Shown here: piece after piece, positions 28,387-53,357 of the stretch | Layout: the number at the start of each line of letters is the position of its first letter | How positions within the stretch are numbered: the stretch's first letter is position 1 | From: an uncultured Alphaproteobacteria bacterium | GTDB lineage: Bacteria > Pseudomonadota > Alphaproteobacteria > Rs-D84 | Assembly: GCA_944392815.1 (NCBI GenBank) | Contig: CALXXY010000001.1 | Span: 133,141-197,140, forward strand | DNA length: 64,000 nucleotides | Direction: 5' to 3' | The notes under the pieces: generated by a model | What the model was told of the DNA's origin: nothing | Seen by the model: only the letters and a program-made list of their open reading frames with translations | Database searches by the model: none | Program-made: the position numbers and the translations under genes

Positions 28387-28408
28387 TAAGAATATTGGGG
28401 TATATAAA

Positions 28409-30463: not shown

Positions 30464-30493
30464 CTAAACAAAAAAAACAGGGAGGAAAACATT

Positions 30494-30679: not shown

Positions 30680-30682
30680 GTT

Positions 30683-31384: not shown

Positions 31385-31448
31385 TCGTGATTTTTCCACT
31401 GTTTTGTGATATAATTGATGGCATAATTGATGACAAAGGAATTTGTTC

Positions 31449-33227: not shown

Positions 33228-33675
33228 AATTAAACTGACTTTGCGTGACGGCGACGTCGTAATCCAAACGCTGCCCGAAATCGCGCCAAAACATGTGGCA
33301 CGAATAACAGAACTCGTGAAATCAGGATTTTATAATGGGTTGACATTTCACCGCGTGATTGCCGGATTCATGGCCCAGACCGGTTGCCCCAATGGCGACG
33401 GGCGCGGCGGCAGTGGCGTGAAAATTCCCGCTGAATTTTCGGGTGAAAATTTCAGCCGCGGCGCAGTTGGCATGGCGCGCACTGTCGATGTAAATTCCGC
33501 GGATTCCCAGTTTTTTATATGTCTGGCGGATTGTTCGTTTTTGAACGGCAAATATACCCTGTGGGGACGCGTTATCAGCGGTATGGAATACGTGGACAAA
33601 ATCAAACTGGGCGACGATATGAATAATGGCCACGTGGATAACCCAGACAAAATTATCAAAATGGAAATGATGTGA
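33217..33675 (+). CDS. ppiB: Peptidyl-prolyl cis-trans isomerase, cyclophilin type
   Basis: LTFHRVIAGFMAQTGCPNGDGRGG, FFICL, YTLWGRV cyclophilin motifs; ATG at 33217 overlaps the LRR gene end. Confidence 0.85.
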   Translation: MTDKIKLTLRDGDVVIQTLPEIAPKHVARITELVKSGFYNGLTFHRVIAGFMAQTGCPNGDGRGGSGVKIPAEFSGENFSRGAVGMARTVDVNSADSQFFICLADCSFLNGKYTLWGRVISGMEYVDKIKLGDDMNNGHVDNPDKIIKMEMM

Positions 33676-33683
33676 CGTGTGTT

Positions 33684-33835
33684 ATTCCCGCACCAGCGGT
33701 GCGGGAATAACAGAGTGTAGAGTGGAGAGTATAGAGTGTAGATATTGTCCGCGCATATGCGCGGAATTTTATTACCGTCGCGGGGCAAAGTTCCCCTCTG
33801 CGGAGGGGTGGCACGTAGTGCCGGGGTGGTTATTG
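33684..33835. repeat. Cluster of palindromic repeats: dRS3-like palindrome (33684-33708), family A copy 2 (33712-33764), family B copy 3 (33766-33835)
   Basis: Direct matches to the elements at 4187-4414 and 5405-5478. Confidence 0.8.
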
Positions 33836-33899
33836 TACCCCCCCGCCCCAAAAGGGTGTGGCGGCATCTGAACCCTTGCTTGCAAAAATTATTAATTGT

Positions 33900-34472
33900 T
33901 TATTTGCGGAATAAAAAGCATTTATATTCGTGTGAATTAATGACGCCCGCCGATTGCAGGTATGCATAAACGGTCGTTGTGCCAATGAACTGCATACCAC
34001 GATGACGTAAATCCGCGGCAATTTTATCTGATAACGCAGAACGGGTTTTGCCAACCTGGTGTATTATGCGGCCACGCGTCCAATGCCACAGATATTTTGA
34101 AAAAGTCCCATATTCATGCGCAATGGACGTAAATACCCGCGCGTTATTGACCACAGCCGCTATTTTGCGTGCATTGCGAATTATGCCTGTATCGCTCTGT
34201 AATTGCGCCAATTTTGCCGTATCATAATTACATACGCGCGCAATATCAAAGTTATCAAACGCGCGACGAAATGCATCGCGACGATTTAAAATGCATTCCC
34301 AACTTAATCCCGCCTGGAACGTTTCCAGCACCAGCATTTCAAATAATTTCGCGTCGTCGTATGTCGGCACGCCCCATTCTGTGTCGTGATAGTGAATGTA
34401 TTTTTCATTTTTGGGATTGGCCCAGTGACAACGAACGCGGCCATCTGGCCATGTTTTATTGGGTGCGGTCAT
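33900..34472 (-). CDS. tag: DNA-3-methyladenine glycosylase I
   Basis: Start at ATG 34472 (MTAPNKTWPDGRVRCHW...); 190 aa. Confidence 0.8.
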   Translation of the reverse strand: MTAPNKTWPDGRVRCHWANPKNEKYIHYHDTEWGVPTYDDAKLFEMLVLETFQAGLSWECILNRRDAFRRAFDNFDIARVCNYDTAKLAQLQSDTGIIRNARKIAAVVNNARVFTSIAHEYGTFSKYLWHWTRGRIIHQVGKTRSALSDKIAADLRHRGMQFIGTTTVYAYLQSAGVINSHEYKCFLFRK

Positions 34473-34969
34473 AGGTTTACCCCCTCGGTCCACAGGAGTT
34501 TGTTTTTTATATCCAATCCACCGGCATACCCGACCAATTTTCCATTCGCGCCCAACACACGGTGACATGGGATTATTATCGACACAGGATTGCGGCCAAC
34601 TGCGCCACCCACCGCGCGTGGTGATGTGCCCCGCCCCATGCGCGCAGCAATGTCACCATAGGTCGTCGTTGTGCCGTATGGGATTTTGCGCAATTCGTGC
34701 CACACTGCACGTTGAAATTCTGTGCCGCGGGGGTTCAATGGAATGCGCGATGTGTCTGGGCGGGCGCCCGCGAAATATTCGTCCAGCCATTGTTTTGTTA
34801 TATTAAAAACTGATAAATTTGCATTGCGCGCAGCGTTATCCGGCACGCCCGCACGAAAATATTTTTGCCCGCAAAACCACAGCCCCACCAACGTGTCTGG
34901 GGTCGCGCACAGTGTTAATTCGCCCAATGGGGAATCGTATGTATCAATAAAATATGTCGGTGTGGTCAT
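34469..34969 (-). CDS. ogt: Methylated-DNA-protein-cysteine methyltransferase
   Basis: IIIPCHRVLG active-site motif; start at ATG 34969; ATGA overlap with tag. Confidence 0.8.
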   Translation of the reverse strand: MTTPTYFIDTYDSPLGELTLCATPDTLVGLWFCGQKYFRAGVPDNAARNANLSVFNITKQWLDEYFAGARPDTSRIPLNPRGTEFQRAVWHELRKIPYGTTTTYGDIAARMGRGTSPRAVGGAVGRNPVSIIIPCHRVLGANGKLVGYAGGLDIKNKLLWTEGVNL

Positions 34970-35107
34970 GTCGAAAATCTTAAAAAATACGACGGAAAAA
35001 ATCAATCCAAAACGGGGCAGATGCATATTTTTCATTTGACTTATTTTTTCATATGGGATAGCTTTCATTAGGTATTTATACTTATTCAAAAATACATGGG
35101 AGAAACT

Positions 35108-35971
35108 ATGAAAAAGAAAATTGCTTTATTTATGGCGGCGGCGATGTTCGCGCCATCTGCGTTCGCGGCTGAAATCACACCGTATGTTGGGTTGGGCCTG
35201 GTTATTGACAAGGCCAGCACGTCCGCACGCCGTGTGGGATTTGACCCGTCAAAAATTAATTCATCTGATCCGATGAGTTCTATGACAAACGCCATTATCG
35301 TAAATGGTGGTGGCAATATGGATTTCGACATGGCGTTTGCCGGCGAAATCACCGCAGGTGTGAAATACGGTAATGTCCGTGCAGAGGTCGAAGTTGCAGT
35401 TCGCAGTGCGTCCGAAGATGATTATGATATTTTCAATGGGAATATTAATTTGCCCGGTTCTGCATTAGGGGAAGCAGGAACCATACTGCGCGACGGCATA
35501 AATATTCCATTGGAATTGGAAAATTCAATTTCTGTTCGTCACAATTCGTATTTGGTGAACATGTATTATGATTTCGAATTGGCAAATTCCAATTGGACAC
35601 CATATATCGGTGCCGGTGTTGGTTTTGGTGTATATCATCAAAAGGCAGTTGTCGACATTGATATCGATGAAGAAATGTTAATGGCCGGTGTTATGGCTGG
35701 TTTAGGGGACATGGCTGCACTGCCAGGGGTTTCGGACCAAGTTATCGAAGGAATGGCCCCTGTGCTGGCAGGAATGCGCAAAGCCGAGGGCGAACGCACT
35801 GTTGCCGATGATACCCTGTATCGTTTTGAATGGCAGGTCGGCCTGGGTGCTGTATACAATTTCAACGAAGATTGGGCGATGGATATTGGATATCGTTTCA
35901 ATTCGTCCACTGTCGGTGGTGAATTCGTCTATGCGCACGAGGTTAAATTGGGCGCACGCTATTCATTCTGA
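35108..35971 (+). CDS. Outer-membrane beta-barrel protein (porin/Omp25-like)
   Basis: gggaga RBS; signal peptide MKKKIALFMAAAMFAPSAFA; alternating aromatic strands; C-terminal ...LGARYSF. Confidence 0.6.
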   Translation: MKKKIALFMAAAMFAPSAFAAEITPYVGLGLVIDKASTSARRVGFDPSKINSSDPMSSMTNAIIVNGGGNMDFDMAFAGEITAGVKYGNVRAEVEVAVRSASEDDYDIFNGNINLPGSALGEAGTILRDGINIPLELENSISVRHNSYLVNMYYDFELANSNWTPYIGAGVGFGVYHQKAVVDIDIDEEMLMAGVMAGLGDMAALPGVSDQVIEGMAPVLAGMRKAEGERTVADDTLYRFEWQVGLGAVYNFNEDWAMDIGYRFNSSTVGGEFVYAHEVKLGARYSF

Positions 35972-36048
35972 CGCGCATTTAAAAACACCGCCGTCCCGGC
36001 GGTGTTTTTATACCCCACCCCACACACAACCCAAACACACGGCACAAC

Positions 36049-36363
36049 ATGAACCACAAAATCATCATCAAATTAAAAATCGAATTGGCCATAGAACCCA
36101 GAATTTGCAGCATTTGTGGCCAACCTATATTGGATAATCAGCAAATGTCACTGGACCATTATATTCCACGATGTCATGGTGGCCCGGACGAGGCGTCTAA
36201 TCTGTTTCCGGCGCATTCAATTTGCAACTCGATAAAAAATGATTTAATGCCCGATGAATTTGAACGCGTAAAAAAGCAACTGTATCAGCAGGCATTGGAC
36301 AATTGGCATATTAAACGCAAAGATAAACTAATCGTTGCCCGCGCATTGGAAAAAATGCAGTAA
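36049..36363 (+). CDS. Small HNH endonuclease
   Basis: CSICG...SLDHYIPRCHGGPDEASNLFPAHSICNSIKND HNH motif; 104 aa. Confidence 0.6.
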   Translation: MNHKIIIKLKIELAIEPRICSICGQPILDNQQMSLDHYIPRCHGGPDEASNLFPAHSICNSIKNDLMPDEFERVKKQLYQQALDNWHIKRKDKLIVARALEKMQ

Positions 36364-36465
36364 TTTGTTCGGAATAACCGCAGCATGGAAACTGGTGCTA
36401 TAATATTTTTATCAATTATGGCGGTGGCATTGCATCGCAATTTCCCGACATCGACATTGTACATT

Positions 36466-36508
36466 TATAAAAAAACGCCCCGTTGGGCGTGTTTTATTTT
36501 ATGGCGGA
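36466..36508. repeat. 41-bp direct repeat (terminator hairpin + 'ttttatggcgga'), copy 1; copy 2 at 36641-36686
   Basis: aaaaaacgccccgttgggcgtgttttattttatggcgga occurs twice, 175 bp apart. Confidence 0.85.
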
Positions 36509-37035
36509 TGGGGAGGGGGGATTCCCTCGCACGATGCATACGCATCGGCTGCGGGGCAACCGTGACGATTTGACTGCGTTGCACTGGTCAAATCTACTTG
36601 TTGTCGAACCTGGGGTTTCTCATCCGCCCCACCGATCCATAAAATAAAAAACGCCCCGTTGGGCGTGTTTTATTTTATGGCGGAGGTGTAACATTTGACG
36701 GTATTAGATATGATAAATACAGGGTATTTACAGGGAATTTTTGTCTTTTTACCAGCAGCATTTTCGCCCGCCCCGCCACAGTTCCGACACTTTTGCAAAA
36801 AATCCCGCAAAAATAACAGGGAATTTGATTCCCCAGAACAGGGATTTTAGTTTATCATATCAGGTAAAAATTCTCTGCTTGCCTAAATAGCAGTTAAAAC
36901 ACTATATTAATAATGATCGTCTATTACTTGAACCACTAAAAAATATTATGTCAACAGTATATAATATATAATCTTTGTTCTAACTAATGGCAATTATAAT
37001 ATCCTGAATAACCAGTACTATACAATATTATTTAA

Positions 37036-38031
37036 CTATTTTTTTAATTTACATTTGCTGGATTTTACTGTTTCCCATAGTTCTAGTTTATGGTTTTCAA
37101 GTTCATAATCTTTTACCAAATTGCTTAAAAACAGTTCAAACTCCATTAATGTCTCAGCCAGATGTTTTTTGCGTCTAAATAAAGTCCATTTGTTTATTTT
37201 TACGAGGCGTTCAAAACGTTTGGATGTATTTATCAGTGCGTATTCGGGAAATAGCATATTGATGCGTTGCGTTTCAATGGTATAACGACGAACTCCCAGA
37301 AAAAAGTCATATCGGTTATCTGGTGGATAAAAATACACTTTGGCACCTGGTACGTGTTTTATTGCGTTTTGGCCATATTTATGCACAATAGCCATTGACA
37401 ATATAATATCATCACATATAGGCCCCTTGTCCAAATATAATTTTTTTATAATATTGCGTGGCACGCGTTTTAACCGTGGTGCAAGATTGTATTTTTTCAA
37501 AATATCCTGTGCATCACGCACAATAAACAAGCGCCCATGAAAATAACCGCGTTGCGGCAACAAATAGCGCATTTCGTAGTATGCTTTCATTATTTTTTGA
37601 AAGTTATTAAGTCGCCCCTTGAAAATTGGCAAAACCTTGGCACAGGCAACCCGCAGTGTATCATTTGCACACATGATGTTATATAATTTCTTTATGGCGG
37701 CCCTATCTATTATCACATCGGCATCACAATATAGTATAAACCCATTTAATTTACGAACATTTGCAATCTTCCTTTCGGCCACAAGTTTTCCGGCACGCGA
37801 ATGTACGATGCTTAAATGCAAATCTTTACACAATTCCTGAGTTTGTTTATTTTGTATTACCGCCAATGTATTATCAGTGGTTCCATTCAAACAAATGATT
37901 GTTTCAAATTGTACATGCTTATCCAAACGATTTAACGCTTGTTTTAGCGCCAAAAGGGTTGAGAATATTGTATTTTCCTCATTTTTTACTGGAATGCCTA
38001 TTGTTAGCGGTGGTATCATTGCTGTATCCAA
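37036..38031 (-). CDS. Glycosyltransferase family 2-like
   Basis: N-terminal LTIGIPVKNEENTI (GT-A fold start) and a CDADV D.D-like motif. Confidence 0.5.
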   Translation of the reverse strand: MDTAMIPPLTIGIPVKNEENTIFSTLLALKQALNRLDKHVQFETIICLNGTTDNTLAVIQNKQTQELCKDLHLSIVHSRAGKLVAERKIANVRKLNGFILYCDADVIIDRAAIKKLYNIMCANDTLRVACAKVLPIFKGRLNNFQKIMKAYYEMRYLLPQRGYFHGRLFIVRDAQDILKKYNLAPRLKRVPRNIIKKLYLDKGPICDDIILSMAIVHKYGQNAIKHVPGAKVYFYPPDNRYDFFLGVRRYTIETQRINMLFPEYALINTSKRFERLVKINKWTLFRRKKHLAETLMEFELFLSNLVKDYELENHKLELWETVKSSKCKLKK

Positions 38032-38048
38032 GTTACAAAGGTATCTAC

Positions 38049-38669
38049 ATGATTATAGATGATTTCACGCAATATGCAAGTTGTTATGATTTGTTCATTT
38101 TTGATATAAATGGTGTATTAGATAACAATCATGAAGCAAAGGTAAGAACTTTATCTGAAGCGTTCCCAGCATTATCTGATTTGCAAATTTCCAAAATAAA
38201 TATTGGTATGGAACGTGCATACGAAAAAAGCAAGGATAGCCCAACCGCATCTCATATTGTGACCGCGTTTGAAGATAACGGCATTGTAATAGACAGCAAT
38301 AAAGCGGAAGAATTGGCAAACAGATACTATGACCTAAATCGTATCAAGCCAGAAATCACAAATTTTCTAAATCAATTAAGCGAAACAAAGAAAGTATGCT
38401 TGTACACATCTTTATCTAAAGCAAAGGTGGATTATATAACTAGTAGATGCCCACTGTCGTCCAATATATTGGTATTTGCCCGCGAGGAACAAGTGGAATC
38501 AAAGCCGTCTATTAGCAATTTAGAGGCAATTTTGCGCATAACAAACACACCGATTAATCGCGCCGTTTTGTTTGGTGATAATGTCGCAGTTGATATTATG
38601 CCAGCACATCTACTGGGGATTAAGGCCGTTTTAGTTAGCAATTATGTTGATGCGGTCATCAAAGTATAA
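38049..38669 (+). CDS. HAD-superfamily hydrolase-like
   Basis: Motif I FDINGVL (DxDG-like, N variant), motif IV FGDNVAVD. Confidence 0.45.
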   Translation: MIIDDFTQYASCYDLFIFDINGVLDNNHEAKVRTLSEAFPALSDLQISKINIGMERAYEKSKDSPTASHIVTAFEDNGIVIDSNKAEELANRYYDLNRIKPEITNFLNQLSETKKVCLYTSLSKAKVDYITSRCPLSSNILVFAREEQVESKPSISNLEAILRITNTPINRAVLFGDNVAVDIMPAHLLGIKAVLVSNYVDAVIKV

Positions 38670-39469
38670 ATAAATTTTGAAGCATCTGACACATTACCAC
38701 GTATAAAATACGCTGGGGTGTGGTTAGATATATTTTGTATATCTGCAAGTCGTTGCTTCATGATGTGGCGCGTGTCAAAACTATTTTGCGTTTCGGTAAA
38801 GTTATTATACAAAAAGTTCAAGTTGCGAATATCCCTGCTTGCCTCTTCATACAAGTGCCAAAACAGTTTTAACCTGTCCAATTTATAGCAGGTCAATTCT
38901 GTTTCATTTGTAATAATCGGAAAAACGACCAAAGCTAATTTAGCAGATTTTGTACGAATATTAAGTGTGGAATCACAGGCCGTTTTGTTTTTTAAGTTGT
39001 CCTTCGACAATGGACAAGCGGCCACAATAGTCTGGGTTTGACCATCCAATACAAACTTTTCATCGCCAATAAATTCCGCATTTGGCAGTTGTTGCAAGGT
39101 TACAGCCAATGTCGTCTTACCGATGCCAGACATACCACCAATTATGGCAATGGCCTTGTTATTAATCGCAACTGCCGCGCCATGCACCTGATAAAGTCTG
39201 TGTGCCTGTCTTTTTTGTTCTAATAGTGCCCCAACAATCACAATAACAGATCGCAAATCAACATCTGCATCAGTTATTTTGATATTATTGCCCCGCCAAT
39301 CAAAGGAGGCCCCACGAGAAATCGTCATCTCTGCGGGCTGTGCTGATTTGGTTATACATGCCCCCGGTATATATTCACGTAAAAAATAATGTGCAGATAA
39401 TGTATCATATACGCTTTTTAGCGTATCACATACAACACATTGTCCCAAAGATCGTATAGCTATTCGCAT
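38642..39469 (-). CDS. HprK-related P-loop kinase-like protein
   Basis: HGAAVAINNKAIAIIGGMSGIGKTTLAVTL...EFIGDEKFVLDG resembles the HPr kinase C-terminal P-loop domain. Confidence 0.45.
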   Translation of the reverse strand: MRIAIRSLGQCVVCDTLKSVYDTLSAHYFLREYIPGACITKSAQPAEMTISRGASFDWRGNNIKITDADVDLRSVIVIVGALLEQKRQAHRLYQVHGAAVAINNKAIAIIGGMSGIGKTTLAVTLQQLPNAEFIGDEKFVLDGQTQTIVAACPLSKDNLKNKTACDSTLNIRTKSAKLALVVFPIITNETELTCYKLDRLKLFWHLYEEASRDIRNLNFLYNNFTETQNSFDTRHIMKQRLADIQNISNHTPAYFIRGNVSDASKFIYTLMTAST

Positions 39470-40536
39470 ATTATAGATTTATAAAATTCCAGTAATTTAT
39501 TTGTCTGTTTTTTGACATTCCAATTATTAACCGCTTCAAACTCTGCATTTTTTGCAATCTTTGTTCGCTTCACTTCATTAGATAAAAGTTCCGTGATTGC
39601 ATTTGATAATGCTTTTACGTCTTTTGGTGGCACCAACAGCGCATTATAGTCATGCTTGGCAAAATCAACCATGCCGGCGCAATTCGTTGTTATGATAGCA
39701 CATCCACACATTGCCGCCTCTAACATTGTGGTTAAAACGCCTTCTTTGGCACTGGATGGACATGCAAAAATTTTGGCTCGGTTATAATAATTTATTAATT
39801 CCTGAGTGGATAGATTTTTGTAATGATGAGCATGTGGATATTTTGCGACAATATCTTCTAGTGGTCCCGCCCCCACAACAACTAAATTAAAGTTGTTTGT
39901 ATTTGTCGTTTCTAATAATTCCAAAATACCCTTATGCGGATATAAACGCCCAACAAATAAAACATCAATGTCACGTTCTTGATGCATATTTTTAAATATT
40001 GAACTATCAACCCCGTTGTGTACAACAGATATGGGACGACGCAAAGATTTTATATTCGTTCCCCATGCATCTTTTACACTTTCAGAAACCGCCAGCAGTC
40101 CTGTCGCATTATATAATGCAATTTCCATTAAATTATCAAAATACTCTGGCGTACCGTGTAAATGGACAACTGTCTTATAACGATCGGGGATAAACAACGC
40201 ATCTGTTGTATTATGGATAACGACAATATCAAATTTCTCTGTGTTGCCGGCATAAAAATATTCAGCCGCATATTTACCAAATAAATATGATTCTATATTA
40301 ATATCTGTCCACGTATCCCCTGTTTGTGTCGGCACCCGCAGGGGCAGTTCAACCAGTTTTACAGACGGATGCGATACGATAAATTCGTCAAAAATTCTAG
40401 ACCGCTGACCTACATCAGCGGTTAGTACAGTAATATTGTGTCCTTGACTTACAAATTCGGCACACTGATTCAGGGCAATTACCTCGGCACCGCCGATATA
40501 ATACCCCAATCTGTAGTAGTGAATCAGTATGTTCAT
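39460..40536 (-). CDS. Glycosyltransferase family 4
   Basis: GT-B C-terminal motif ...EGVLTTMLEAAMCGCAIITT... Confidence 0.55.
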   Translation of the reverse strand: MNILIHYYRLGYYIGGAEVIALNQCAEFVSQGHNITVLTADVGQRSRIFDEFIVSHPSVKLVELPLRVPTQTGDTWTDINIESYLFGKYAAEYFYAGNTEKFDIVVIHNTTDALFIPDRYKTVVHLHGTPEYFDNLMEIALYNATGLLAVSESVKDAWGTNIKSLRRPISVVHNGVDSSIFKNMHQERDIDVLFVGRLYPHKGILELLETTNTNNFNLVVVGAGPLEDIVAKYPHAHHYKNLSTQELINYYNRAKIFACPSSAKEGVLTTMLEAAMCGCAIITTNCAGMVDFAKHDYNALLVPPKDVKALSNAITELLSNEVKRTKIAKNAEFEAVNNWNVKKQTNKLLEFYKSIICE

Positions 40537-40544
40537 GATTGCTT

Positions 40545-41012
40545 CTATATTTTACGCACAATTGGCATAACATTTTGCTCAAAATATTCGCGTTGGGCTG
40601 GGAATCCAATTATCTTTTCGTCAACCAATGCCTCGGAATCCAGCCATACAACCTTTACTTTATCCTCACGTTCTTCGCAAAAATCCAGCACAGCATCACT
40701 CGGCACCTTTGCCACAAAGAATATATGAGCCTCGTTATATGCACCACGTTTTTCAATTTTTTGCTCTGCAACTTTAAATTTATATGGTTCTTTTACTTGT
40801 TGTGCCAGTCCAACCATAAATTCTGCTGTTTTACCAAGTTCTTCACGTAATTCGCGGGTTAAAGCCTGTTCCGCGGTAGTTTCGCCGTCATCAAATCGTC
40901 CGCCAATCGTACCATAGGCACCCGGTGCATATTCCAAAATGGCAATTTGCTTTTTATCGCCAACTATGCGTACTGGAATAATATATGCCGCATAACTAAT
41001 ATCTTTGATCAT
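40545..41012 (-). CDS. NUDIX hydrolase
   Basis: Nudix box GGRFDDGETTAEQALTRELREELG. Confidence 0.75.
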   Translation of the reverse strand: MIKDISYAAYIIPVRIVGDKKQIAILEYAPGAYGTIGGRFDDGETTAEQALTRELREELGKTAEFMVGLAQQVKEPYKFKVAEQKIEKRGAYNEAHIFFVAKVPSDAVLDFCEEREDKVKVVWLDSEALVDEKIIGFPAQREYFEQNVMPIVRKI

Positions 41013-41506
41013 TTTTCTCTCCTTGTATTATATAAAATTTCTAAACTTTTTATGTCTGTTGCTGATTTTATCACAGATTGCAATGAATCTAAATCACTTT
41101 CGTATTCTTCATTATTATCCGGGGTATGTATCAGATTACTTGGTGCGTATTTTTCCCACGGGGTACAATATTTATTACGAATATATTTTTTTATTTGTGG
41201 TCCTGTTGCCAGTGCATTGTATCCCTCTACAATAACCAATAAATGATCCCTGCCAGTACGGTCTGGACCTAATTGATAATTTATTGTCGCATCTTTCCAG
41301 TCTTGTGTCATCTCCGTTTTATAATCTGGTGCCAGCACGGGCTGATAACCTATTAACATATCATAGGTCATCTTAAACCTTGCAGAGACTAAAACAGACA
41401 AATTCCGTGACTGTAATTGCTTATAAAACTCAAATCTTGCGCGAAAAGTCCGTAAACTCAGTTGCAGAGCATCTGGTTTTAATAGAAAAAGAGTTTTTTC
41501 TAACAT
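41009..41506 (-). CDS. Divergent nucleoside-diphosphate-kinase-like protein
   Basis: KTLFLLKPDA (cf. NDK ERTFIMIKPDG), LVIVEGYNALATG, NLIHTPD (cf. NIIHGSD, catalytic His). Confidence 0.4.
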   Translation of the reverse strand: MLEKTLFLLKPDALQLSLRTFRARFEFYKQLQSRNLSVLVSARFKMTYDMLIGYQPVLAPDYKTEMTQDWKDATINYQLGPDRTGRDHLLVIVEGYNALATGPQIKKYIRNKYCTPWEKYAPSNLIHTPDNNEEYESDLDSLQSVIKSATDIKSLEILYNTRREK

Positions 41507-41620
41507 ATATTATCCCTATGACGCAGATAAGGCTAACACATTGTTTTTATTTGTCAAATACTTCTATAAATCGTTGCGTGGTGTAAAATTGCTTGGTAAT
41601 ATTGCAGGAAAGGGGTAAAA

Positions 41621-42730
41621 ATGAAAGTTGCTATATTTTGCGACTATCTGCATTCGTTCGGCGGCACAGAATACTATAATGCAACCTTAGCAATGGAATT
41701 AAAAAAACGCGGTATAGATGTGCGTGTATTTGTATGTGAAAAGCCGCAAAATTTATATTGGTTTGACCGCTTGCAAAAACAAGGTATCACAACATACGCT
41801 CCAGAGCGTTTTCGCGAAAACCGTGATGACCACACTATAGATGCCGAATTTGCTGCCGATATTATGGACGAGTTTATTGCATGGGCACCCGATGTTATAC
41901 ATGCCAGCCCCGCTGCAAACATGCTGGGCGCATACATAAAACATAAAAAAGCCCCCCATCTGCCGATTGTGGCAACAGAACATACAACACCCAGCCCAGA
42001 TTCTGCTTTTTGGTATCCTGTGCACTTTGATAAAATTTTGAAAAACATAGATGCTTTTGTGGCGACCTGTAAGGCATCTGTAAATGGCATCAGACAATTT
42101 CATAAATTCCGTGGCCCTATACACATAATACCACACTTTATAAACAAGCCGCTTTTATATAGCACTCGGCGCATACCAAATTCGGTTGCTTGCATTGCCC
42201 GAATGTCACCAGAAAAGGGTATCGGTGTTTTACTGGTGGCATGGAAAAGCGTTATTAAACAAGTACCAGATGCAAAATTATACTTATACGGACACGGTCG
42301 TGCCAAGCTATATTTTGAACGTCTGGCACTATCTTTGGGACTGGGAAACACTGTTCGTTTTGCAGGCGTATTTGATCCACGTCGTGGTCCAAGTGCCATT
42401 GCTGGCAAGCATGACATATTCGTACAACCGTCCTTATTTGAAAGCATCCCTACATCGCTTATTGAACTAGCCTTGCTAGGCAAACCTGTAATTGCCACGG
42501 ATGTTGGTGGTGTTAGGGAGTTAATAAACAATAAAACAGGTGTTTTAATAAAAAGCGCATCAACAGACGTATTATCCAAAGCCATTGTGCAGTTATTGCA
42601 TGATAAAGAACGTCAAGCTGTGTTGGCGAAACAACTGCAACAATCTGTCGCTAATAAATATGACCTAAATGCCAATATTGATGCTATGATCAAGTTGTAT
42701 CAAGATGTTATACAAGCACAGAGCAAGTAA
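41621..42730 (+). CDS. Glycosyltransferase family 4
   Basis: FGGTEYYNATLA N-terminus; ESIPTSLIELALLGKPVIATDVGGVRELI (the E-X7-E region). Confidence 0.75.
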   Translation: MKVAIFCDYLHSFGGTEYYNATLAMELKKRGIDVRVFVCEKPQNLYWFDRLQKQGITTYAPERFRENRDDHTIDAEFAADIMDEFIAWAPDVIHASPAANMLGAYIKHKKAPHLPIVATEHTTPSPDSAFWYPVHFDKILKNIDAFVATCKASVNGIRQFHKFRGPIHIIPHFINKPLLYSTRRIPNSVACIARMSPEKGIGVLLVAWKSVIKQVPDAKLYLYGHGRAKLYFERLALSLGLGNTVRFAGVFDPRRGPSAIAGKHDIFVQPSLFESIPTSLIELALLGKPVIATDVGGVRELINNKTGVLIKSASTDVLSKAIVQLLHDKERQAVLAKQLQQSVANKYDLNANIDAMIKLYQDVIQAQSK

Positions 42731-42731
42731 T

Positions 42732-43910
42732 ATGAAACAATATATTTATGCTTCTAATCGCTACAAACGTTTTTTTGCAAAGTCTATAACTGGCATAAAA
42801 TTCATGCGTTCTTTGCACGTACAAGCCATAGATAATGCCTCTATCATAATTGAACCAGACACGCATCGTTTTGGTGTGTTTGATGCAAAAGGTGCACTTG
42901 TGCAAGATTCACTGCAATTACGCAATAAAATTGTGCAAAGGGCACCGAAATTTATATCGCCGACCAAAATTTTAGATATAGAGGCGGTGTATATAGGAAC
43001 CCTAGAGGACCATTTTGGACATTTCTTATTGGAACACACAAACCGCTTGTACCCCGTTTTGCATATTAAATATAAGCATATGAAATACGTCATATTAAAC
43101 AACAGAAATCTGCCAAAAGTATCAGACTTTGTGTATGAATTTCTGCAAATACTTGGCATCAATGAATCCGACATTTTTATAATAAATGATAATGTAAAAA
43201 TAAAACGATTATATATACCCCCAGTAGCATTTGAAATACCCAATAAATCTTCATCTGCATTTTGTAAAACATTTGATGCCGCTGCGGCGTACGCACAACC
43301 AGCGCACCGGATTAAAAAAGTTTATGTATCCAGGGAACGTTTGTCGGAGCGCGCTACATTTGGCGAACAACAAATACGACAACTATTTGAAAGGAATGGA
43401 TTTACTGTTATTTATCCAGAACAATTGTCTTTGTATGAGCAAATCTGTTATATGAAACATTGCAAATGCCTAGCTGGCATTGCTGGTTCTGCTTTGCATT
43501 TATCGCTATTTATGCCCAAGGGCAGCAAAGTAATACAAATTAAACGCAATAAACTGCTGGCAGACAATGCAAGCACACAGTATTTGTTGTGTAAAACTAA
43601 ACATTGCGACTTTGTTTTGGTGGATTGTGCGTGTGAAATCTTACCTACACATCACTGGTCGGAATTTCCTCAGATAATAGGTTCAACCAAATATTTAAAA
43701 CAGTTTTTAAGAGATTGTCAATTTAATTATACCGCCCAAGACCTTAGTTGTGATAAATCTATTCGTAAAAAATACCGCCACGCCTTTCGTGCAAAAGGTG
43801 GATTTATTCGCTATCAAATAAAACGCACTCTTGTTTATGTTTTGCCACACATGATGCCCACAAAACGATATAAAAATCGTATGCGTCGTTGGTTAAATAC
43901 GCATCTATGA
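42732..43910 (+). CDS. DUF563/GT61-like glycosyltransferase
   Basis: FGHFLLEHTNRLYPV motif typical of the DUF563 capsular/glycan transferases. Confidence 0.45.
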   Translation: MKQYIYASNRYKRFFAKSITGIKFMRSLHVQAIDNASIIIEPDTHRFGVFDAKGALVQDSLQLRNKIVQRAPKFISPTKILDIEAVYIGTLEDHFGHFLLEHTNRLYPVLHIKYKHMKYVILNNRNLPKVSDFVYEFLQILGINESDIFIINDNVKIKRLYIPPVAFEIPNKSSSAFCKTFDAAAAYAQPAHRIKKVYVSRERLSERATFGEQQIRQLFERNGFTVIYPEQLSLYEQICYMKHCKCLAGIAGSALHLSLFMPKGSKVIQIKRNKLLADNASTQYLLCKTKHCDFVLVDCACEILPTHHWSEFPQIIGSTKYLKQFLRDCQFNYTAQDLSCDKSIRKKYRHAFRAKGGFIRYQIKRTLVYVLPHMMPTKRYKNRMRRWLNTHL

Positions 43911-44146
43911 TAAAAATAATACGCGTATAAAATTGTCGGGATAAACAGTCCTAAAACTTCAAGTCGCGTCAGATAAGTTTTCAAGTCAGCCGTTTTATTT
44001 TGGTGATTACAGACATCGGTTGAAAACAAAATCGTTTTTTGGTATTCTGATAGTGAAAGGAGTCGAACTGGCACGTGCGTGCCATAATTGACCCCTTTTT
44101 TTATTTATGTGAATTTCGCATAAATAATAAAACAAGGAGAGAGGAA

Positions 44147-45466
44147 ATGAATAAATTACAAATTGAAAATTTGAAACTGGGTGATATCCACGCGTATAAA
44201 AACAACGCGAAAAAACACCCAGAATCTCAGGTGCAGCAGATTATATCTTCTATAACCAAGTTTGGTTTTAATAATCCAATATTAATCGATGAAAATAATG
44301 AAATTATCGCAGGTCATGGTCGTTTTATGGCCGCCCAGGTAATGAATCTGGAAACTGTTCCAACTGTAAAACTGTCACATTTAACGGATGCACAAAAACG
44401 TGCATATAGATTGGCCGATAACAAAATCGCTGAAAATGGTGGTTGGAATAAAGAATTGTTAAGTCTGGAAATCAAAGATTTGGAAAAGATATGCTTGAAC
44501 GATAATTTTGTAATCCAAGATATTGGATTTAATGATGCGGAATTTGATTCTATCGTTAATTTTACAGACACAAAACCAATCAATCCGAAAACCAATGCTG
44601 TTCCATTTATACCAGAAGATGAAATCATATCCAAACCTGGTGATATATGGCAATTAAGCAAACATCGCATAATCTGTGGTGACAGTTTAAACCCAGAAAC
44701 ATTTGCAAAACTGTTTGAAAATGATAAGGCAGATATGATTCTGCAAGATCCGCCATATAATGTCAAAATAGATGGGCATGTATGTGGTTCGGGCATTATT
44801 AAACACAAAGAATTTGCAATGGCGTCTGGCGAAATGACCGCAGATGAATTCACGCAGTTCTTGATGAATAACTTCGCATTGTGTAAACAGTATTCTAATA
44901 ATGGTTCCCTGCATTATAACTTTATGGATTGGCGTCATGTCTTGGAAATCACAACTGCGGGCAAGAACATATTTGATAAATTCATCAATATGTGTGTATG
45001 GGTAAAAACATCTGGTTGTATGGGCAGTTTATACAGAAGCCAACATGAACTATGTTTTATATTCCAAAACGGCAAAGGATCACATAATAACAATGTTCAA
45101 CTTGGTAAATATGGCCGATACAGAACCAATGTATGGCAATATGCAGGCGTGAATACTTTTGGCAAACATAAACAAGACGGCATCATGCATCCAACGGTTA
45201 AGCCCATAGAGATGCTAAAAGATGCAATATTGGATGTATCAAAACGTGGTGATATTGTGTTGGACAGTTTTCTTGGCTCGGGTAGCACTTTAATTGCATG
45301 TCAACAATCTGGACGAATTTGTTATGGCATAGAATATGAACCGTTGTACATCGATACAACAATACGCAGGTTTCAGAATTTATTCGGGATAGATGCGATA
45401 AATTTATCCATCGATAAAACATACAATGAAATATTGAAAGAGCATAAGGGGGGTAATAATGTATGA
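44147..45466 (+). CDS. ParB-like nuclease domain fused to a DNA (N6-A/N4-C) methyltransferase
   Basis: aaggagagagg RBS; N-terminal ParB/Srx motif (KFGFNNPILIDENNEIIAGHGRFMAA); MTase motif IV ILQDPPYNV and motif I IVLDSFLGSGSTLIACQQSGR. Confidence 0.75.
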   Translation: MNKLQIENLKLGDIHAYKNNAKKHPESQVQQIISSITKFGFNNPILIDENNEIIAGHGRFMAAQVMNLETVPTVKLSHLTDAQKRAYRLADNKIAENGGWNKELLSLEIKDLEKICLNDNFVIQDIGFNDAEFDSIVNFTDTKPINPKTNAVPFIPEDEIISKPGDIWQLSKHRIICGDSLNPETFAKLFENDKADMILQDPPYNVKIDGHVCGSGIIKHKEFAMASGEMTADEFTQFLMNNFALCKQYSNNGSLHYNFMDWRHVLEITTAGKNIFDKFINMCVWVKTSGCMGSLYRSQHELCFIFQNGKGSHNNNVQLGKYGRYRTNVWQYAGVNTFGKHKQDGIMHPTVKPIEMLKDAILDVSKRGDIVLDSFLGSGSTLIACQQSGRICYGIEYEPLYIDTTIRRFQNLFGIDAINLSIDKTYNEILKEHKGGNNV

Positions 45467-45833
45467 TTATGAAATAGGATATGGTCGCCCACCAAAATCG
45501 ACCAGATTTAAACCCGGTCAATCGGGTAACCCAAAGGGTCGTAAAAAGGGTTCTAAAAACACGTACAGCATATTACGTGATATATTGAATCAGAAAGTCA
45601 CAGTAAATACGACTGACAAAGGTGCAATACAAATTACTAAACAACAAGCAATTTTATTGCAAGCAACTAATCAGGCGGTTTCTGGTGATATTAAAGCAAT
45701 AACATTTGTTATGCCGTACCTGTTGAAGATGGACGAAAAAGAAGCAGAACGTAATACATTGAATAAACAATTAAATATTAATGATAAACAAATAATTGAA
45801 ACATGGTTGAAGAACAATGGGACAAAACACTGA
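45459..45833 (+). CDS. DUF5681-like phage protein (terminase small-subunit-like)
   Basis: GRPPKSTRFKPGQSGNPKGRKKGSKN signature; overlaps the start of terL. Confidence 0.5.
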   Translation: MYDYEIGYGRPPKSTRFKPGQSGNPKGRKKGSKNTYSILRDILNQKVTVNTTDKGAIQITKQQAILLQATNQAVSGDIKAITFVMPYLLKMDEKEAERNTLNKQLNINDKQIIETWLKNNGTKH

Positions 45834-47286
45834 TATTTTACTATCACTTTTGCGAACTGATTTTAAATCGTTTTGTATAAAAGTGTTTAATACGATTTCA
45901 AGTGCAGACACATACATGGATAATTGGCATGTAGATGTGATTTGTAATGAAATCGAACAGATGATCGATGGTAAGAATAACCGTTTGATAATAAATATTC
46001 CGCCACGTAATATGAAATCTATTATCTGTTCTGTTGCGCTACCGGCATTTTTGTTGGGGCTCGATCCATCAACAAGAATTATTTGTGTAAGTTATAGTGA
46101 CGAATTGGTAAAAAAGCTATCCAATGATTGCAAAATGGTTATGACAAGTAGTTGGTATAAAGAACTATTTCCGCGTACAGTGATAGATTCAAAACATTGT
46201 TCAGCAACAAATTTTGGAACTACACGCAGTGGCGGTCGTTTTGCAACATCTGTTGGTGGACCATTAACGGGTATAGGTGGCGATTGGATTATTATAGACG
46301 ATCCATTAAAAGCCAGTGATGCATGTTCCGACACAGTAAGAGGAAAAGTAAATAATTGGTATACCAATACATTGTATTCGCGTCTAAATAACAAAAACAC
46401 AGGTCGTATTTTAGTTGTTATGCAACGTTTGCATGAAATGGATTTAACAGGATATTTATTATCAAAAACACTTGGATTCAAACAAATTCGAATACCAATA
46501 ATTGCAGAAGATGACGAGAATTGGTCTTTTACAGATAAATTTAATCGTAACCATAATATAAAACGCAAAAAAGATGAACTACTGCACCCCGCACGTGAAA
46601 ATTTTGACGCGGTCACCGGTATGCGTAATATGATGGGAGAATTTGCTTTTGCCGGGCAATATCAACAACGCCCCGTTCCACAAGATGGTGGCATAGTAAA
46701 AAGGGGATGGTTGCATTATTATAATCAAGTGCCTAAAATATGGCGCATCATCATTTCTTGGGATACTGCCGCAAAAGCTGGTTCTGCAAATGCTTATTCG
46801 GCATGTTCGATTTTTGGAATATGTGACGGTGACAAGCCTGGTAAATACAACCGAAAAATCATATTATTGGAAGTTCGCAGAATGAAGTTAGAATTTCCGG
46901 CTCTAGTGAACTTTATTGAAAGATTTCCAGAAGAAATTCGTGATAAATATCGACAATATTTTACCAACGATTGCGTCCAAGTTGAGACTATCATAGAAGA
47001 TGCGTCATCTGGAACCGCCATAATACAATTTTTACAATCAAAAGGTATACGTGTCAGACCAATAAAGTCCGAAACAGATAAAGAGACCAGATTGACTGGC
47101 ATCACGCATCTTTTAGAAAACGGAACCGTTTTATTACCAAATCAACAAAACGGTGACTTAGTTGATTTCTTTGATGAATTGTTTAAATTTCCAAATTCTA
47201 CATTCAAAGACATGGTCGATTCTTTTTCTCAGGGCGTTCGATACATAGATGACTCCTACATCTCCGGATCACGCGGGTATTTCTGA
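45817..47286 (+). CDS. terL: Phage terminase large subunit (GTA/alphaproteobacterial phage type)
   Basis: W.VDVICNEIEQ...RLIINIPPRNMKSI..LPAFLLGLDPSTRII (ATPase domain) and IIIDDPLK; C-terminal nuclease WDTAAKAG. Confidence 0.7.
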   Translation: MGQNTDILLSLLRTDFKSFCIKVFNTISSADTYMDNWHVDVICNEIEQMIDGKNNRLIINIPPRNMKSIICSVALPAFLLGLDPSTRIICVSYSDELVKKLSNDCKMVMTSSWYKELFPRTVIDSKHCSATNFGTTRSGGRFATSVGGPLTGIGGDWIIIDDPLKASDACSDTVRGKVNNWYTNTLYSRLNNKNTGRILVVMQRLHEMDLTGYLLSKTLGFKQIRIPIIAEDDENWSFTDKFNRNHNIKRKKDELLHPARENFDAVTGMRNMMGEFAFAGQYQQRPVPQDGGIVKRGWLHYYNQVPKIWRIIISWDTAAKAGSANAYSACSIFGICDGDKPGKYNRKIILLEVRRMKLEFPALVNFIERFPEEIRDKYRQYFTNDCVQVETIIEDASSGTAIIQFLQSKGIRVRPIKSETDKETRLTGITHLLENGTVLLPNQQNGDLVDFFDELFKFPNSTFKDMVDSFSQGVRYIDDSYISGSRGYF

Positions 47287-47455
47287 TGCCTACAATTATT
47301 AAAAAACCATTGAATGTGCAAAATTCTCTATCTGAATCCTATTTTATGTAAAATCTTTCTGGGACCCCACCGGGTCCACGTATATCTATTACTCTGCCAA
47401 ATAAATTTAGCAATGATCTATGATGGTGTAATTGCCACTAAACATTAGGTTTATT

Positions 47456-48088
47456 TTAAGCAATCCATTTTGACTGTTTATCCATATATAGTGGTTCAAG
47501 ATTGCGCCTAAATTCTTCAACAATATTACGGATTTCTTTATTGATCTTATCATCAGGATTGATTTTATCAGCTTTCGTTTCGCAAAATATTAAATCATAT
47601 AACGGTTTGTATTCAGGAATGTCCTTACCATAATATAAATTTTTGGAAGCTTGCATAATCACCGAGTTATAATTAGTCAATTTAAGCATAGCCGCCATGA
47701 TTCCGTTACCCCAATACATATAAGCATTGTTTTGTAAAGAACGCAACCTATCTATAATATCTTGCTGTGTTATCAATCGGTGATGCGGAACAAGATAGTT
47801 TATTCTTTCTGGATGTATATCTACCTTGCCAGGATTTGTAATTGCTTCTGATTTAATCCACTCTAGAGTCTCATCATGCTCTGTTTGGGCTATCATGGGC
47901 ATTCTAACATGTATGTATAAATCCTGGATATCGTAAACAGCGCGCATAATTTCAGCAGCAAGTTCAATTTTCTTTTTACCAATAAATTCCCGCTTCCAAG
48001 TATATAAAGCAACCACGGCGAGAATGGGTGTAATAACAGAAGCAATTGCAGAAATAATACTATAAATATTGCAAGTCATCGATATCAC
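47456..48088 (-). CDS. Hypothetical membrane-anchored protein downstream of the R-M genes
   Basis: N-terminal TM IISAIASVITPILAVVALY; no motif recognised. Confidence 0.35.
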   Translation of the reverse strand: MISMTCNIYSIISAIASVITPILAVVALYTWKREFIGKKKIELAAEIMRAVYDIQDLYIHVRMPMIAQTEHDETLEWIKSEAITNPGKVDIHPERINYLVPHHRLITQQDIIDRLRSLQNNAYMYWGNGIMAAMLKLTNYNSVIMQASKNLYYGKDIPEYKPLYDLIFCETKADKINPDDKINKEIRNIVEEFRRNLEPLYMDKQSKWIA

Positions 48089-48095
48089 CCGTTGT

Positions 48096-49271
48096 TTATT
48101 TTAAACGATCAAACACATAATCAACAGGAGATTCGTATTTATTCGGCATCATAGATGATACAAATCTTCTAACTTCCGGACGAGAATTTAACATATTCTC
48201 TATGATATGACGTTGCAAATCAGGAAACGCCCTGTGTGGTGCTAAAGCTCTGTGACATACTGGACATAATTTTACCAAATTATCCAGTACATCAACCGCA
48301 TCAGAATCATTAGCATATGCAATAACATGATTTACTTCAAAATAATATCTATTGTTTCGTGGCATCAGGAATGAACGATCTTTGATATCATACCGATCAC
48401 CACAACCAACGCATACATCCGCGAAAGTTTCTCTTGCGAATGCAACAATTTTTTGATTTCTGATAGAAAATTTATTTTCTGGCACCACATCAATTGGTTC
48501 ACGAAATTCAAGATCTTGTCTTAAGGCGTTTATTTCATTTGGCGTCAACTCTCTGCCAAGAATCTTTTGACGATAAAAAATCAGACGTTCTTCAAACATG
48601 TGATACGCATGAACTTCACCCAAATTTCTTATATTTACTCTTAAGACATCTGTTTTATATTTATTTATATTCGGGTATCTAGTTATTACGTTTTCGTAAA
48701 ACCATTTCAAATTTATTCTAATTTGAGTATTTCTCTCCCTTTCTCCTGTGGCAAACTGCGGTTGTAATTCTCTAAAGTTTAGGTTCAAACGTTCTATCAA
48801 ATTATTTGAAGACAATAACAGTTTAAAAATATTGTCTACATATCGTGGAGTAGGATTTTTAAGATCCAACGCATATAAGCCACGATTAAAATCTGCGCTT
48901 CCACGCAACAAAAACATTGCCAGAGCAACTTCTTCATCTAGTGGGTAATTAACTGGCAATTTATTCAATAATACGATGATTTTTTCATAAATAGCATTCA
49001 GAAAATCATCCAATGATATGCGTTTGTCATTGACGACAGTTGCAGCTATGGTTGTTGCGTTTATTTGAACAAAATCAATTCCATATTTACGAGTCAGCGC
49101 TTGAGCTGTTTTCTTATGTGAATCCGCTGGCAAAGGTAAAAACTTCGTTATTCTGTACCTGGATTGAATTTCAAAATTTCCGTTTTTTTCATCGGCAGCA
49201 TTGAAAAACGCTACGAAAAGAGTTTCTATCGGCATTTGTAATAATTGACCTATATTCATAACAATCCCCAC
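48096..49271 (-). CDS. HNH nuclease, probable restriction endonuclease of the adjacent MTases
   Basis: C-terminal CVGCG...EVNHVIAYAND...CPVCH HNH motif; start overlaps the MTase stop. Confidence 0.55.
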   Translation of the reverse strand: MGIVMNIGQLLQMPIETLFVAFFNAADEKNGNFEIQSRYRITKFLPLPADSHKKTAQALTRKYGIDFVQINATTIAATVVNDKRISLDDFLNAIYEKIIVLLNKLPVNYPLDEEVALAMFLLRGSADFNRGLYALDLKNPTPRYVDNIFKLLLSSNNLIERLNLNFRELQPQFATGERERNTQIRINLKWFYENVITRYPNINKYKTDVLRVNIRNLGEVHAYHMFEERLIFYRQKILGRELTPNEINALRQDLEFREPIDVVPENKFSIRNQKIVAFARETFADVCVGCGDRYDIKDRSFLMPRNNRYYFEVNHVIAYANDSDAVDVLDNLVKLCPVCHRALAPHRAFPDLQRHIIENMLNSRPEVRRFVSSMMPNKYESPVDYVFDRLK

Positions 49272-51071: not shown

Positions 51072-51335
51072 TATTCCTTCCGATAGAAAAACTATACAAG
51101 AATTTTACAAACAAAATCAAGGCGATTTACAACTTTCTATAAGCCCTATTTTTACCCAATGTTACTATTCGGAACACTTTAAGGTACAATAAATCGCAAA
51201 ATCTGTGAATGTTATCCAAATAGGGGTGGATAGTCATTTCTTTTATATATCAGACATTTTGTGTAATAGAGTTTTATCAACTTGACTTTCTGCGCTTTGT
51301 AAGCAGTAATTGCACAACCTTAAAAGGATGTGATT

Positions 51336-53352: not shown

Positions 53353-53357
53353 TGAAA

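Follow-up and report, generated by a model that had tools for sequence, protein, structure and literature searches.

Eight adjacent genes in the genome of an uncultured alphaproteobacterium of the Rs-D84 lineage form a conserved cassette of soluble enzymes, and we tentatively propose that they constitute a self-contained, mobile, cytoplasmic pathway making a small soluble glycoside or short oligosaccharide via a phosphorylated intermediate. The cassette lies at 37036-43910 of a 64,000-nucleotide stretch of contig CALXXY010000001.1 (the window; positions without a locus number refer to it, Table 1), and homologous loci are numbered from L001. Among the explanations weighed below, we consider this one the likeliest, while stopping short of calling it probable.

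Gene content and organization of the cassette

In order along the window, the 6.9-kb cassette encodes a glycosyltransferase (GT) of family GT2, a HAD-superfamily hydrolase, a P-loop kinase of the PEPCK/HprK fold, a first GT4 enzyme (GT4a), a NUDIX hydrolase, a protein resembling nucleoside diphosphate kinases (NDK-like), a second GT4 enzyme (GT4b) and a GT61 enzyme. The original prediction, made from the sequence alone, had placed eight enzymes in this interval, and all of them were recovered in their places by Pfam or, for the two weak calls, by structure. The NDK-like, NUDIX, GT4a and kinase genes form one tight operon, in which the NDK-like gene overlaps the NUDIX start by 4 nt, an 8-nt gap follows, and GT4a overlaps the kinase start by 10 nt. 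The HAD gene is convergent with the kinase gene (28-nt overlap), GT2 is divergent from HAD, and GT4b and GT61 make up a second operon, divergent from the NDK-like gene across a 114-nt spacer. The GT2 open reading frame (ORF) extends to a TTG at 38031; the likely ATG start at 38019 yields the protein of 327 aa as called in L001.

All eight proteins lack transmembrane segments, with Kyte-Doolittle scores over 19 residues that peak at 1.64 or less. All eight genes are under purifying selection, with dN/dS values of 0.06-0.13 in comparison to L016 (0.10 for GT2), and the cassette therefore presumably does something important. Full-text literature searches for the enzyme combination and for HprK-like kinases did not retrieve it.

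The kinase and the NDK-like protein define divergent families

The kinase is the signature gene of the cassette. Its motifs HG...GxSGxGKT...DEKF are conserved (alignment A1), and VHG...GGMSGIGKT...GDEKF of the window protein align with the upstream His, Walker A motif and downstream acidic pair of L. casei HprK. Scores stay under all family cut-offs, at 15.9 bits vs 33.3 for PF07475 (Hpr_kinase_C), 17.4 vs 240 for TIGR00679 and 23 vs 200 for TIGR04352. An AlphaFold2 (AF2) model of the protein (pLDDT 88.6) nevertheless matched both ATP-PEPCK and HprK/P with a Foldseek probability of 1.0, which confirmed the earlier assignment of a P-loop, HPr-kinase-like protein at the level of the PEPCK/HprK fold. 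The match to PEPCK is whole-length (TMq about 0.5), whereas that to HprK/P takes in the P-loop half only (~110-180 columns, TMq 0.25).

A single-sequence search with the kinase returned only 18 clusters among 5.8e9, and profile searching across 1.84e9 representatives raised this to 213 relatives at E<=1e-10; almost all are single-domain proteins of 270-300 aa. Judged by these sequence relationships, the kinase is a family of its own with about 200 representatives. One member, P0086, carries a precomputed match to PF27840, a model absent from the local Pfam copy, and the family may thus have been curated very recently. In another protein (P0162, 639 aa, representative library), a BpsA_C (aminopropyl/methyltransferase-like) domain is fused to the cassette kinase, paralleling the kinase-then-methyltransferase adjacency of Nanoarchaeota-type loci.

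For the NDK-like protein, Pfam PF00334 gave 17.8 bits vs a cut-off of 27. Its AF2 model (pLDDT 91.3) matched NDKs at a Foldseek probability of 1.0, TM-scores of 0.6-0.78 and 15-18% identity. In an alignment with E. coli and Dictyostelium NDK and with forms from Candidate Phyla Radiation (CPR) bacteria, it keeps K10, R110, N124, the catalytic H127 and E134, and the catalytic His is present in every version aligned. A divergent NDK with NLIHTPD had been called before; the motif reads as claimed and the modelled fold is that of an NDK.

Glycosyltransferases, NUDIX and HAD

When the GT4a family profile was compared with the PDB, the best matches were to BshA (2jjm, 3mbo and 5d00; E 1e-34 to 1e-32), at full length and covering both domains. 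Sucrose-phosphate synthase (SPS, 3e-31) and MshA (5e-27) came next, and maltose-1-phosphate synthase was also matched. The match to lipid-linked PglA (6e-27) covers the C-terminal two-thirds only (profile 137-370 of 372). BshA is the UDP-GlcNAc:L-malate transferase; GT4a is not its orthologue, scoring 62.9 bits with TIGR03999 vs a cut-off of 273.7. Profile similarity thus suggests that the closest GT4 relatives of GT4a are BshA, SPS and MshA, enzymes that take small-molecule (acid or sugar-phosphate) acceptors. In every locus GT4a lies directly upstream of the kinase.

The GT2 family profile matched generic GT-A enzymes only, e.g., chondroitin and heparosan synthases, and the best PDB matches of GT4b were TarM (1e-16) and PimA/PimB'. 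GT4b and GT61 are add-ons seen only in Alphaproteobacteria; GT61 is missing in L013, and the CPR loci L022-L024 have no GT4b orthologue. An NCBIfam scan of the cassette GTs gave matches that include SdgA/SdgB and GtfA, below cut-off. PDB searches with single sequences yielded no matches for GT61, GT2 or HAD and only unnamed MutT proteins for NUDIX, which has no close characterised relative.

Motif I of the window HAD reads FDINGVLD, in which the nucleophile Asp is present and Asp+2 is Asn (DxN). In the alignments, CPR type 2 has DxG[DN] at this motif, and HADs of the Nanoarchaeota type show the canonical DxDDT.

The cassette is conserved in Alphaproteobacteria with unrelated flanks

The exact NDK-like protein occurred in 92 metagenome-contig index blocks (22 contigs read), with an identical region from GT2 to the large terminase gene (TerL) where shown. 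At 50-90% identity, the eight-gene order is kept in at least nine other alphaproteobacterial loci with unrelated flanks. These stem from gut metagenome-assembled genomes (MAGs; one of Ca. Enterousia; sheep, buffalo and roe-deer gut) and from an uncultured proteobacterium. The flanks of L009 encode CYTH, OmpA, a collagen-like protein and an autotransporter, and the L013 cassette sits between an EcoRI-type methylase with a GmrSD_N-HNH protein and, on the other side, LigA. L013 also holds a second NUDIX paralogue and a tRNA-U5-methyltransferase-like gene (L013:4331-6744).

In the window, the cassette is cargo of an element bearing a DUF2924 gene and a large serine recombinase gene. The same pair abuts the cassette in L018 and is 1.2 kb away in L016, the methylase and terminase genes discussed below being present in neither. 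Together, the low-GC island, the recombinase-bearing element and the syntenic cassettes in unrelated flanks bear out the earlier claim of horizontally acquired island cargo.

The core extends to CPR bacteria and Nanoarchaeota

Distant homologues of the kinase were found in MAGs of Saccharimonadales, Woesebacteria and Peribacteria. In these three CPR loci, Pfam detected NUDIX, GT2, GT4, kinase and HAD together; GT2 is absent from the Woesebacteria core, and two of these loci also have an NDK-like gene. Scanning metagenomes with the kinase subfamily alignment A4 added 31 further loci. The subsequent neighbourhood census, based on our own ORF calling, clustering and hidden Markov models (HMMs), comprised 38 distinct kinases, 23 of them with at least 7 kb of flank. 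Among these 23, a GT4 gene directly upstream of the kinase and a GT2 gene nearby were universal (23/23 each), NUDIX was present in 22, and HAD was detected in 16 by HMM and additionally in L057 by Pfam. The NDK-like gene occurred in 18/23 and is absent from Nanoarchaeota-type cassettes. No ptsH or other phosphotransferase system (PTS) gene was found near the kinase in any of the 38 neighbourhoods.

Accessory genes depend on the lineage and include class-I S-adenosylmethionine (SAM) methyltransferases, FkbM, extra NUDIX copies and an adenosine-deaminase-family gene (PF00962, E 4e-30). The latter follows the kinase directly, in convergent orientation, in five environmental cassettes (L031-L034 and L051; e.g., L033:10748-11674, minus strand); L033 and L034 are without HAD and L032 has both. 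In Nanoarchaeota-labelled MAGs the order is HAD, GT2, GT4, kinase and methyltransferase, with or without a hexapeptide acyltransferase, plus NUDIX, and at one such locus the cassette adjoins ftsZ and aIF5A.

In a Saccharimonadales MAG (L022:6699-12280), NUDIX, NDK-like, GT2, GT4, kinase, HAD and an FkbM methyltransferase gene are inserted between tuf and fusA, two genes that usually adjoin each other in the str operon. A link to translation, prompted by this insertion, was rejected, the context not being conserved.

The alphaproteobacterial, Saccharimonadales and Peribacteria versions have in common a gene arrangement in which HAD follows GT4 and kinase on the other strand, convergent and overlapping, as well as the HAD motif FDxNGVLD; this fits lateral transfer among gut or host-associated ultra-small organisms. 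Overall, the cassette appears to move between small-genome bacteria and archaea on recombinase-bearing islands.

A putative cytoplasmic glycoside pathway

In the pathway that we propose, the kinase would phosphorylate a small acceptor, either anionic or hydroxylated, for which a sugar, a polyol and a C3/C4 hydroxy-acid are candidates. GT4a, translationally coupled to the kinase and similar to BshA, MshA and SPS, would move the first sugar onto it from a nucleoside diphosphate (NDP)-sugar. HAD would then take the phosphate off and GT2 would add a second sugar, with GT4b and GT61 adding more in Alphaproteobacteria. The NDK-like protein and NUDIX might deal with the NDP that the GTs release, either by re-phosphorylating or by removing it, or they might regulate the pool of NDP-sugars; it is in the role given to these two enzymes that the proposal is weakest. 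Handling of NDP may matter in hosts such as Rs-D84, reported to be unable to make nucleotides; Rs-D84/Ca. Enterousia genomes are below ~1 Mb and are without nucleotide, amino-acid and lipid synthesis (PMC12306168).

The PEPCK-like whole-length fold, the constant coupling of GT4 and kinase and the adjacent HAD fit a route via kinase, GT4 and phosphatase. As PEPCK is a small-molecule kinase, the whole-length match of the cassette kinase to it argues for a small acceptor. The class-I methyltransferases, FkbM and hexapeptide acyltransferases encoded in CPR and Nanoarchaeota loci suggest that the product is a decorated saccharide.

Several observations weigh against such a pathway. None of the enzymes is close to a characterised orthologue, with all NCBIfam scores lying far below cut-off. 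The window HAD lacks the general-acid Asp+2 and hence may not be a simple phosphatase, and HAD is missing from ~30% of the cassettes altogether. HprK-type kinases are classically protein or peptide kinases, and GT4 and GT2 enzymes can use lipid-linked acceptors supplied from elsewhere in the genome. Lastly, nucleotide housekeeping does not account for the retention of as many as three NUDIX genes, of an NDK-like protein bearing a lineage-specific insert and, in some cassettes, of the adenosine-deaminase-family gene; these hint at a nucleotide-derived substrate.

Alternative explanations

The original prediction had taken the genes for a surface-glycan cassette (lipopolysaccharide (LPS), capsule or protein glycosylation). 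The GTs would in that case decorate an envelope component such as a lipid, the LPS core, a secreted protein or an outer-membrane protein (OMP), with carriers and exporters encoded elsewhere, while kinase and HAD would add and remove a phosphate on the glycan and antigenicity or phage receptors would change as a result. We regard this as unlikely. Location on a mobile island is typical of surface-variation genes, GT4b resembles TarM and PimA/B, which act on polymers or lipids, and GT61 relatives include protein O-GlcNAc transferases; furthermore, an OMP gene adjoins the cassette in the window and in L016, and in L009 OmpA, collagen-like and autotransporter genes lie near it. However, Pfam and NCBIfam detected no initiating transferase of the WecA/WbaP type among the eight proteins and their neighbours, and no version of the cassette contains a flippase, polymerase, exporter, transmembrane protein or NDP-sugar gene. 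No sugar-nucleotide synthesis gene is present at 37036-43910, the sole epimerase/dehydratase gene (55818-56831) being outside the island, beyond tRNA-Ser. The neighbours differ between loci, GT4a is nearest to GT4s with small-molecule acceptors, and the core is kept in CPR bacteria and Nanoarchaeota MAGs, lineages that are not known to make LPS. The surface interpretation thus found little support, and the cassette is not a classical LPS or capsule cluster. A nucleoside or nucleotide substrate, which would be shifted between phosphorylation states by kinase, NDK-like protein, NUDIX and HAD and end up as a glycosylated, in some lineages methylated or deaminated, product (e.g., a metabolite, a signal or an antiviral or antibiotic analogue), seems rather unlikely to us as well, yet conservation of NDK-like protein and NUDIX together with the adenosine-deaminase-family gene keeps it the main rival of interest. 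Four of the eight enzymes (kinase, NDK-like, NUDIX, HAD) belong to phosphate- or nucleotide-handling superfamilies, the NDK-like catalytic His is conserved throughout, CPR cassettes carry one to three NUDIX genes, the adenosine-deaminase-family gene directly follows the kinase in five loci, and PRPP synthetase genes are neighbours of the cassette in L040, L045 and L046. Some contexts are also reminiscent of defence islands, namely GmrSD-like and EcoRI methylase genes at L013, SMODS and Panacea at L024 and restriction-modification (R-M) genes in the window. On the other hand, the universal core has no nucleoside-specific enzyme, Nanoarchaeota-type cassettes are without the NDK-like gene, and none of the eight proteins (0/8) gave a significant PADLOC match to a known defence system. 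The closest relatives of GT4a act on malate, inositol phosphate and fructose phosphate, not on nucleosides, and in compact genomes the genes for adenosine deaminase and PRPP synthetase might simply serve salvage, with no connection to the cassette. An extended version of this idea, quite unlikely in our estimation, is a cross-domain mobile pathway of ultra-small, nucleotide-auxotrophic symbionts (CPR, Nanoarchaeota, Rs-D84) that would glycosylate a nucleoside, a nucleotide or a nucleic-acid end by means of two new enzyme families, namely a small kinase with the PEPCK fold and an NDK-like phosphotransferase with an active His, the product being a new glycosylated nucleotide metabolite, signal or antiviral.

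It is improbable that the kinase acts on Ser/Thr residues of proteins or peptides, like HprK/P or the lasso-peptide kinases, and that the GTs glycosylate a cytoplasmic protein or ribosomal peptide. The P-loop, upstream His and downstream acidic motif do follow the HprK/P layout, GT4 and GT61 families include protein O-glycosyltransferases, and SdgA/SdgB and GtfA are among the NCBIfam matches; in addition, HprK homologues are reported to phosphorylate lasso-peptide precursors (PMC8498205). However, conserved genes for a candidate substrate, a precursor peptide, PqqD/RRE, a cyclase or a protease were not found in the 38 neighbourhoods, PTS genes are likewise missing, and it is PEPCK, not HprK/P, that the kinase fold matches along its entire length. 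That the cassette works with the adjacent ParB-methylase as a phage-type system for hypermodifying or glycosylating DNA (or RNA), the second possibility raised by the original prediction, we consider highly improbable. Kinases and GTs occur in phage thymidine and 5-hydroxymethylcytosine hypermodification pathways, and the window cassette indeed adjoins ParB-methylase, DUF5681 and TerL genes. This trio adjoins the cassette only in the present strain group, though, and is absent by the orthologous cassettes L009, L010, L013 and L016-L021; likewise, all CPR and Nanoarchaeota-type loci are without the methylase and terminase. Outside the window, the only hint of a link to DNA is the L013 cassette, which adjoins a GmrSD_N-HNH protein and a methylase. 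The GmrSD type IV restriction family targets glycosylated DNA, but this neighbourhood is probably a defence-island coincidence. The cassette contains no hydroxymethylase, TET/JBP or aGPT-Pplase domain according to Pfam and PHROGs, and the accessory methyltransferases belong to class-I types that act on small molecules and not to the DNA methylases. The original prediction had also suggested looking for homologous blocks in phage genomes: neither kinase nor NDK-like protein had a relative among 50,697 GenBank phage genomes (tblastn) or in IMG/VR pattern scans with alignments A1, A4 and A2, and a BFVD fold search returned no phage-model relative, only giant-virus PEPCKs. GT4a and GT61 gave weak, partial matches to GenBank phages (23-33% identity, unannotated faecal contigs), and a PHROGs scan of the cassette proteins matched generic GT and NUDIX families only. 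Hence, of the original prediction the gene calls and the horizontally transferred GT cargo stood, the surface glycan fared poorly and DNA hypermodification found no support.

Genomic context of the cassette

The cassette is part of a low-GC island at ~36000-55500 (GC 35-40% vs 42-49% in the 10-kb flanks on either side), the right end of which is marked by tRNA-Ser. A ParB-methylase neighbour had been predicted and is indeed encoded immediately beyond GT61 (Table 1). The region of ParB-methylase, DUF5681 and terminase matches phrog_498 of PHROGs, and TerL matches 1,737 phage terminases, the best at 47% identity on a human faecal contig. Portal, capsid or tail genes accompany the trio nowhere in the island, and it represents the remnant of a prophage or else a satellite-like module for packaging. 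DUF2924 and the large serine recombinase are likely the mobility module of the island. A plasmid search with the kinase gave no match.

Table 1 Features of the cassette and its island in the window.
Feature	Length (aa)	Position	Strand	Basis and remarks
GT2 (GT-A)	327	37036-38019	-	PF00535, E 3e-10; soluble; DAD motif YCDADV
HAD-superfamily hydrolase	206	38049-38669	+	PF13419 (HAD_2)/PF00702 (Hydrolase), E 1e-7
P-loop kinase, PEPCK/HprK fold	275	38642-39469	-	AF2 and Foldseek; alignment A1
GT4a (GT4, GT-B)	358	39460-40536	-	PF00534, E 2e-28; PF13439
NUDIX hydrolase	155	40545-41012	-	PF00293, E 1e-9; Nudix box intact (GGRFDDGETTAEQALTRELREELG)
NDK-fold phosphotransferase (predicted)	165	41009-41506	-	AF2 and Foldseek
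GT4b (second GT4)	369	41621-42730	+	Pfam, E 6e-28
GT61/DUF563	401 (392 from 42732)	42705-43910	+	PF04577, E 7e-19
ParB_N + N6_N4_Mtase DNA methylase		44075-45466	+	Pfam; context, outside pathway
DUF5681		45459-45833	+	Pfam; context, outside pathway
Large terminase (TerL)		45817-47286	+	Pfam; context, outside pathway
DUF2924		51330-51773	+	Pfam; context
Large serine recombinase		51763-53352	+	Pfam; context
tRNA-Ser(tga)		55515-55604	-	ARAGORN; right end of low-GC island

The island of this strain also holds a complete type II R-M system and a HATPase_c_3 protein. The slot between terminase and DUF2924 varies among strains (47456-51071, minus strand, in the window vs L001:1190-4198). In the window and L005 it is occupied by a 210-aa protein of no known family and the R-M system, in which two methylases (one N4/N6, one C5) accompany an HNH-type REase (PADLOC REase_II, 6e-68). 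A single 1002-aa protein without a Pfam or PADLOC match takes this place in other strains. The HATPase_c_3 protein (MORC/GHKL-type, 642 aa; 53358-55286, minus strand) is encoded between serine recombinase and tRNA-Ser; it gave weak PADLOC matches to a REase_II model and the SduA DUF4263 model and possibly serves in defence.

A perfect 39-nt direct repeat (AAAAAACGCCCCGTTGGGCGTGTTTTATTTTATGGCGGA) was observed at 36470-36508 and 36646-36684, in the 670-bp gap from a small HNH gene to GT2. Each copy is a GC hairpin between A and T runs and resembles a bidirectional terminator. At this site L001, L002, L007 and L008 have five to six additional genes, including DUF488, and the repeat may be a deletion or recombination scar. 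Apart from this duplication, repeats of the att type that might bound the island were sought, and all those detected were short and probably due to chance.

The left host flank (28253-35971) encodes the anaerobic ribonucleotide reductase NrdD and its activase, a BspA-type leucine-rich repeat protein, cyclophilin, Tag, Ogt and an OMP beta-barrel, and the right one (55818-57959) an NDP-sugar epimerase/dehydratase and Lgt. These genes fit an anaerobic, host-associated diderm.

Significance

If the host genome is ~1 Mb in size, the eight-gene cassette takes up about 0.7% of it. The same core is found in MAGs of CPR bacteria and Nanoarchaeota, the other main ultra-small, host-dependent groups, and an accessory pathway shared by all of them could point to a need common to this lifestyle, for instance a glycoside for protection or storage, the remodelling of metabolites that are scavenged, or chemistry linked to nucleotides. 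The cassette furthermore defines two uncharacterised families, the PEPCK/HprK-fold kinase and the operon-embedded NDK-like protein. More generally, annotation of island-borne GTs as LPS or capsule genes should not be automatic.

Comparison with known systems

The closest parallels to the proposed pathway are two-step routes that pair a glycosyl-phosphate synthase with a phosphatase, namely SPS/SPP, MshA/MshA2, GpgS/GpgP and MggA/MggB (for (mannosyl)glucosylglycerate), together with the BshA pathway. What the cassette has in common with them is a soluble retaining GT4 beside a HAD-family hydrolase and enzymes that are all cytoplasmic; the GT4a profile matches SPS, MshA and BshA best. Extension of a first glycoside by extra GTs is known from the mannosylglucosylglycerate and methylglucose lipopolysaccharide pathways. 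None of these five systems, however, has the PEPCK-fold kinase, the NDK-like protein or NUDIX of the cassette. GT4a scores far below the orthologue cut-offs, the window HAD differs from that of SPS/SPP-type pathways in lacking Asp+2, and in contrast to bacillithiol and mycothiol pathways there are no downstream enzymes of the BshB/BshC or MshB/MshC type.

With O-antigen, capsule and LPS-core clusters, the cassette shares several GT2 and GT4 genes on a low-GC mobile island. It lacks their Wzx, Wzy or ABC exporter, WecA/WbaP-type initiator and sugar-nucleotide synthesis, and unlike them it is present in the LPS-less CPR and Nanoarchaeota lineages. Systems with T4 alpha/beta-glucosyltransferase or 5-hmdU DNA kinase are resembled in this genome only, where a kinase and GTs lie near a DNA methylase and a terminase; the enzyme families differ, there is no hydroxymethylase and the linkage to the methylase is not conserved.

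The kinase shares the HG...GxSGxGK[ST]...[DE][DE] layout with HprK/P and ATP-PEPCK, in line with the Foldseek probability of 1.0 to both. It differs from them in its 10-24% identity and sub-threshold Pfam and NCBIfam scores, in its size of 275 aa, smaller than PEPCK and without the HprK N-terminal domain, and in being encoded among GTs instead of PTS or gluconeogenesis genes. Similarly, the NDK-like protein has in common with Ndk/NME the fold, the Lys of KPD, the Arg of IR, Asn-x-x-His and the following Glu. It is set apart from them by the identity of 15-18%, the replacement of HGSD by H[TAI][PAST]D, an insert of 35-60 aa just before the catalytic His in CPR forms, and a gene that overlaps NUDIX within a glycosyltransferase operon.

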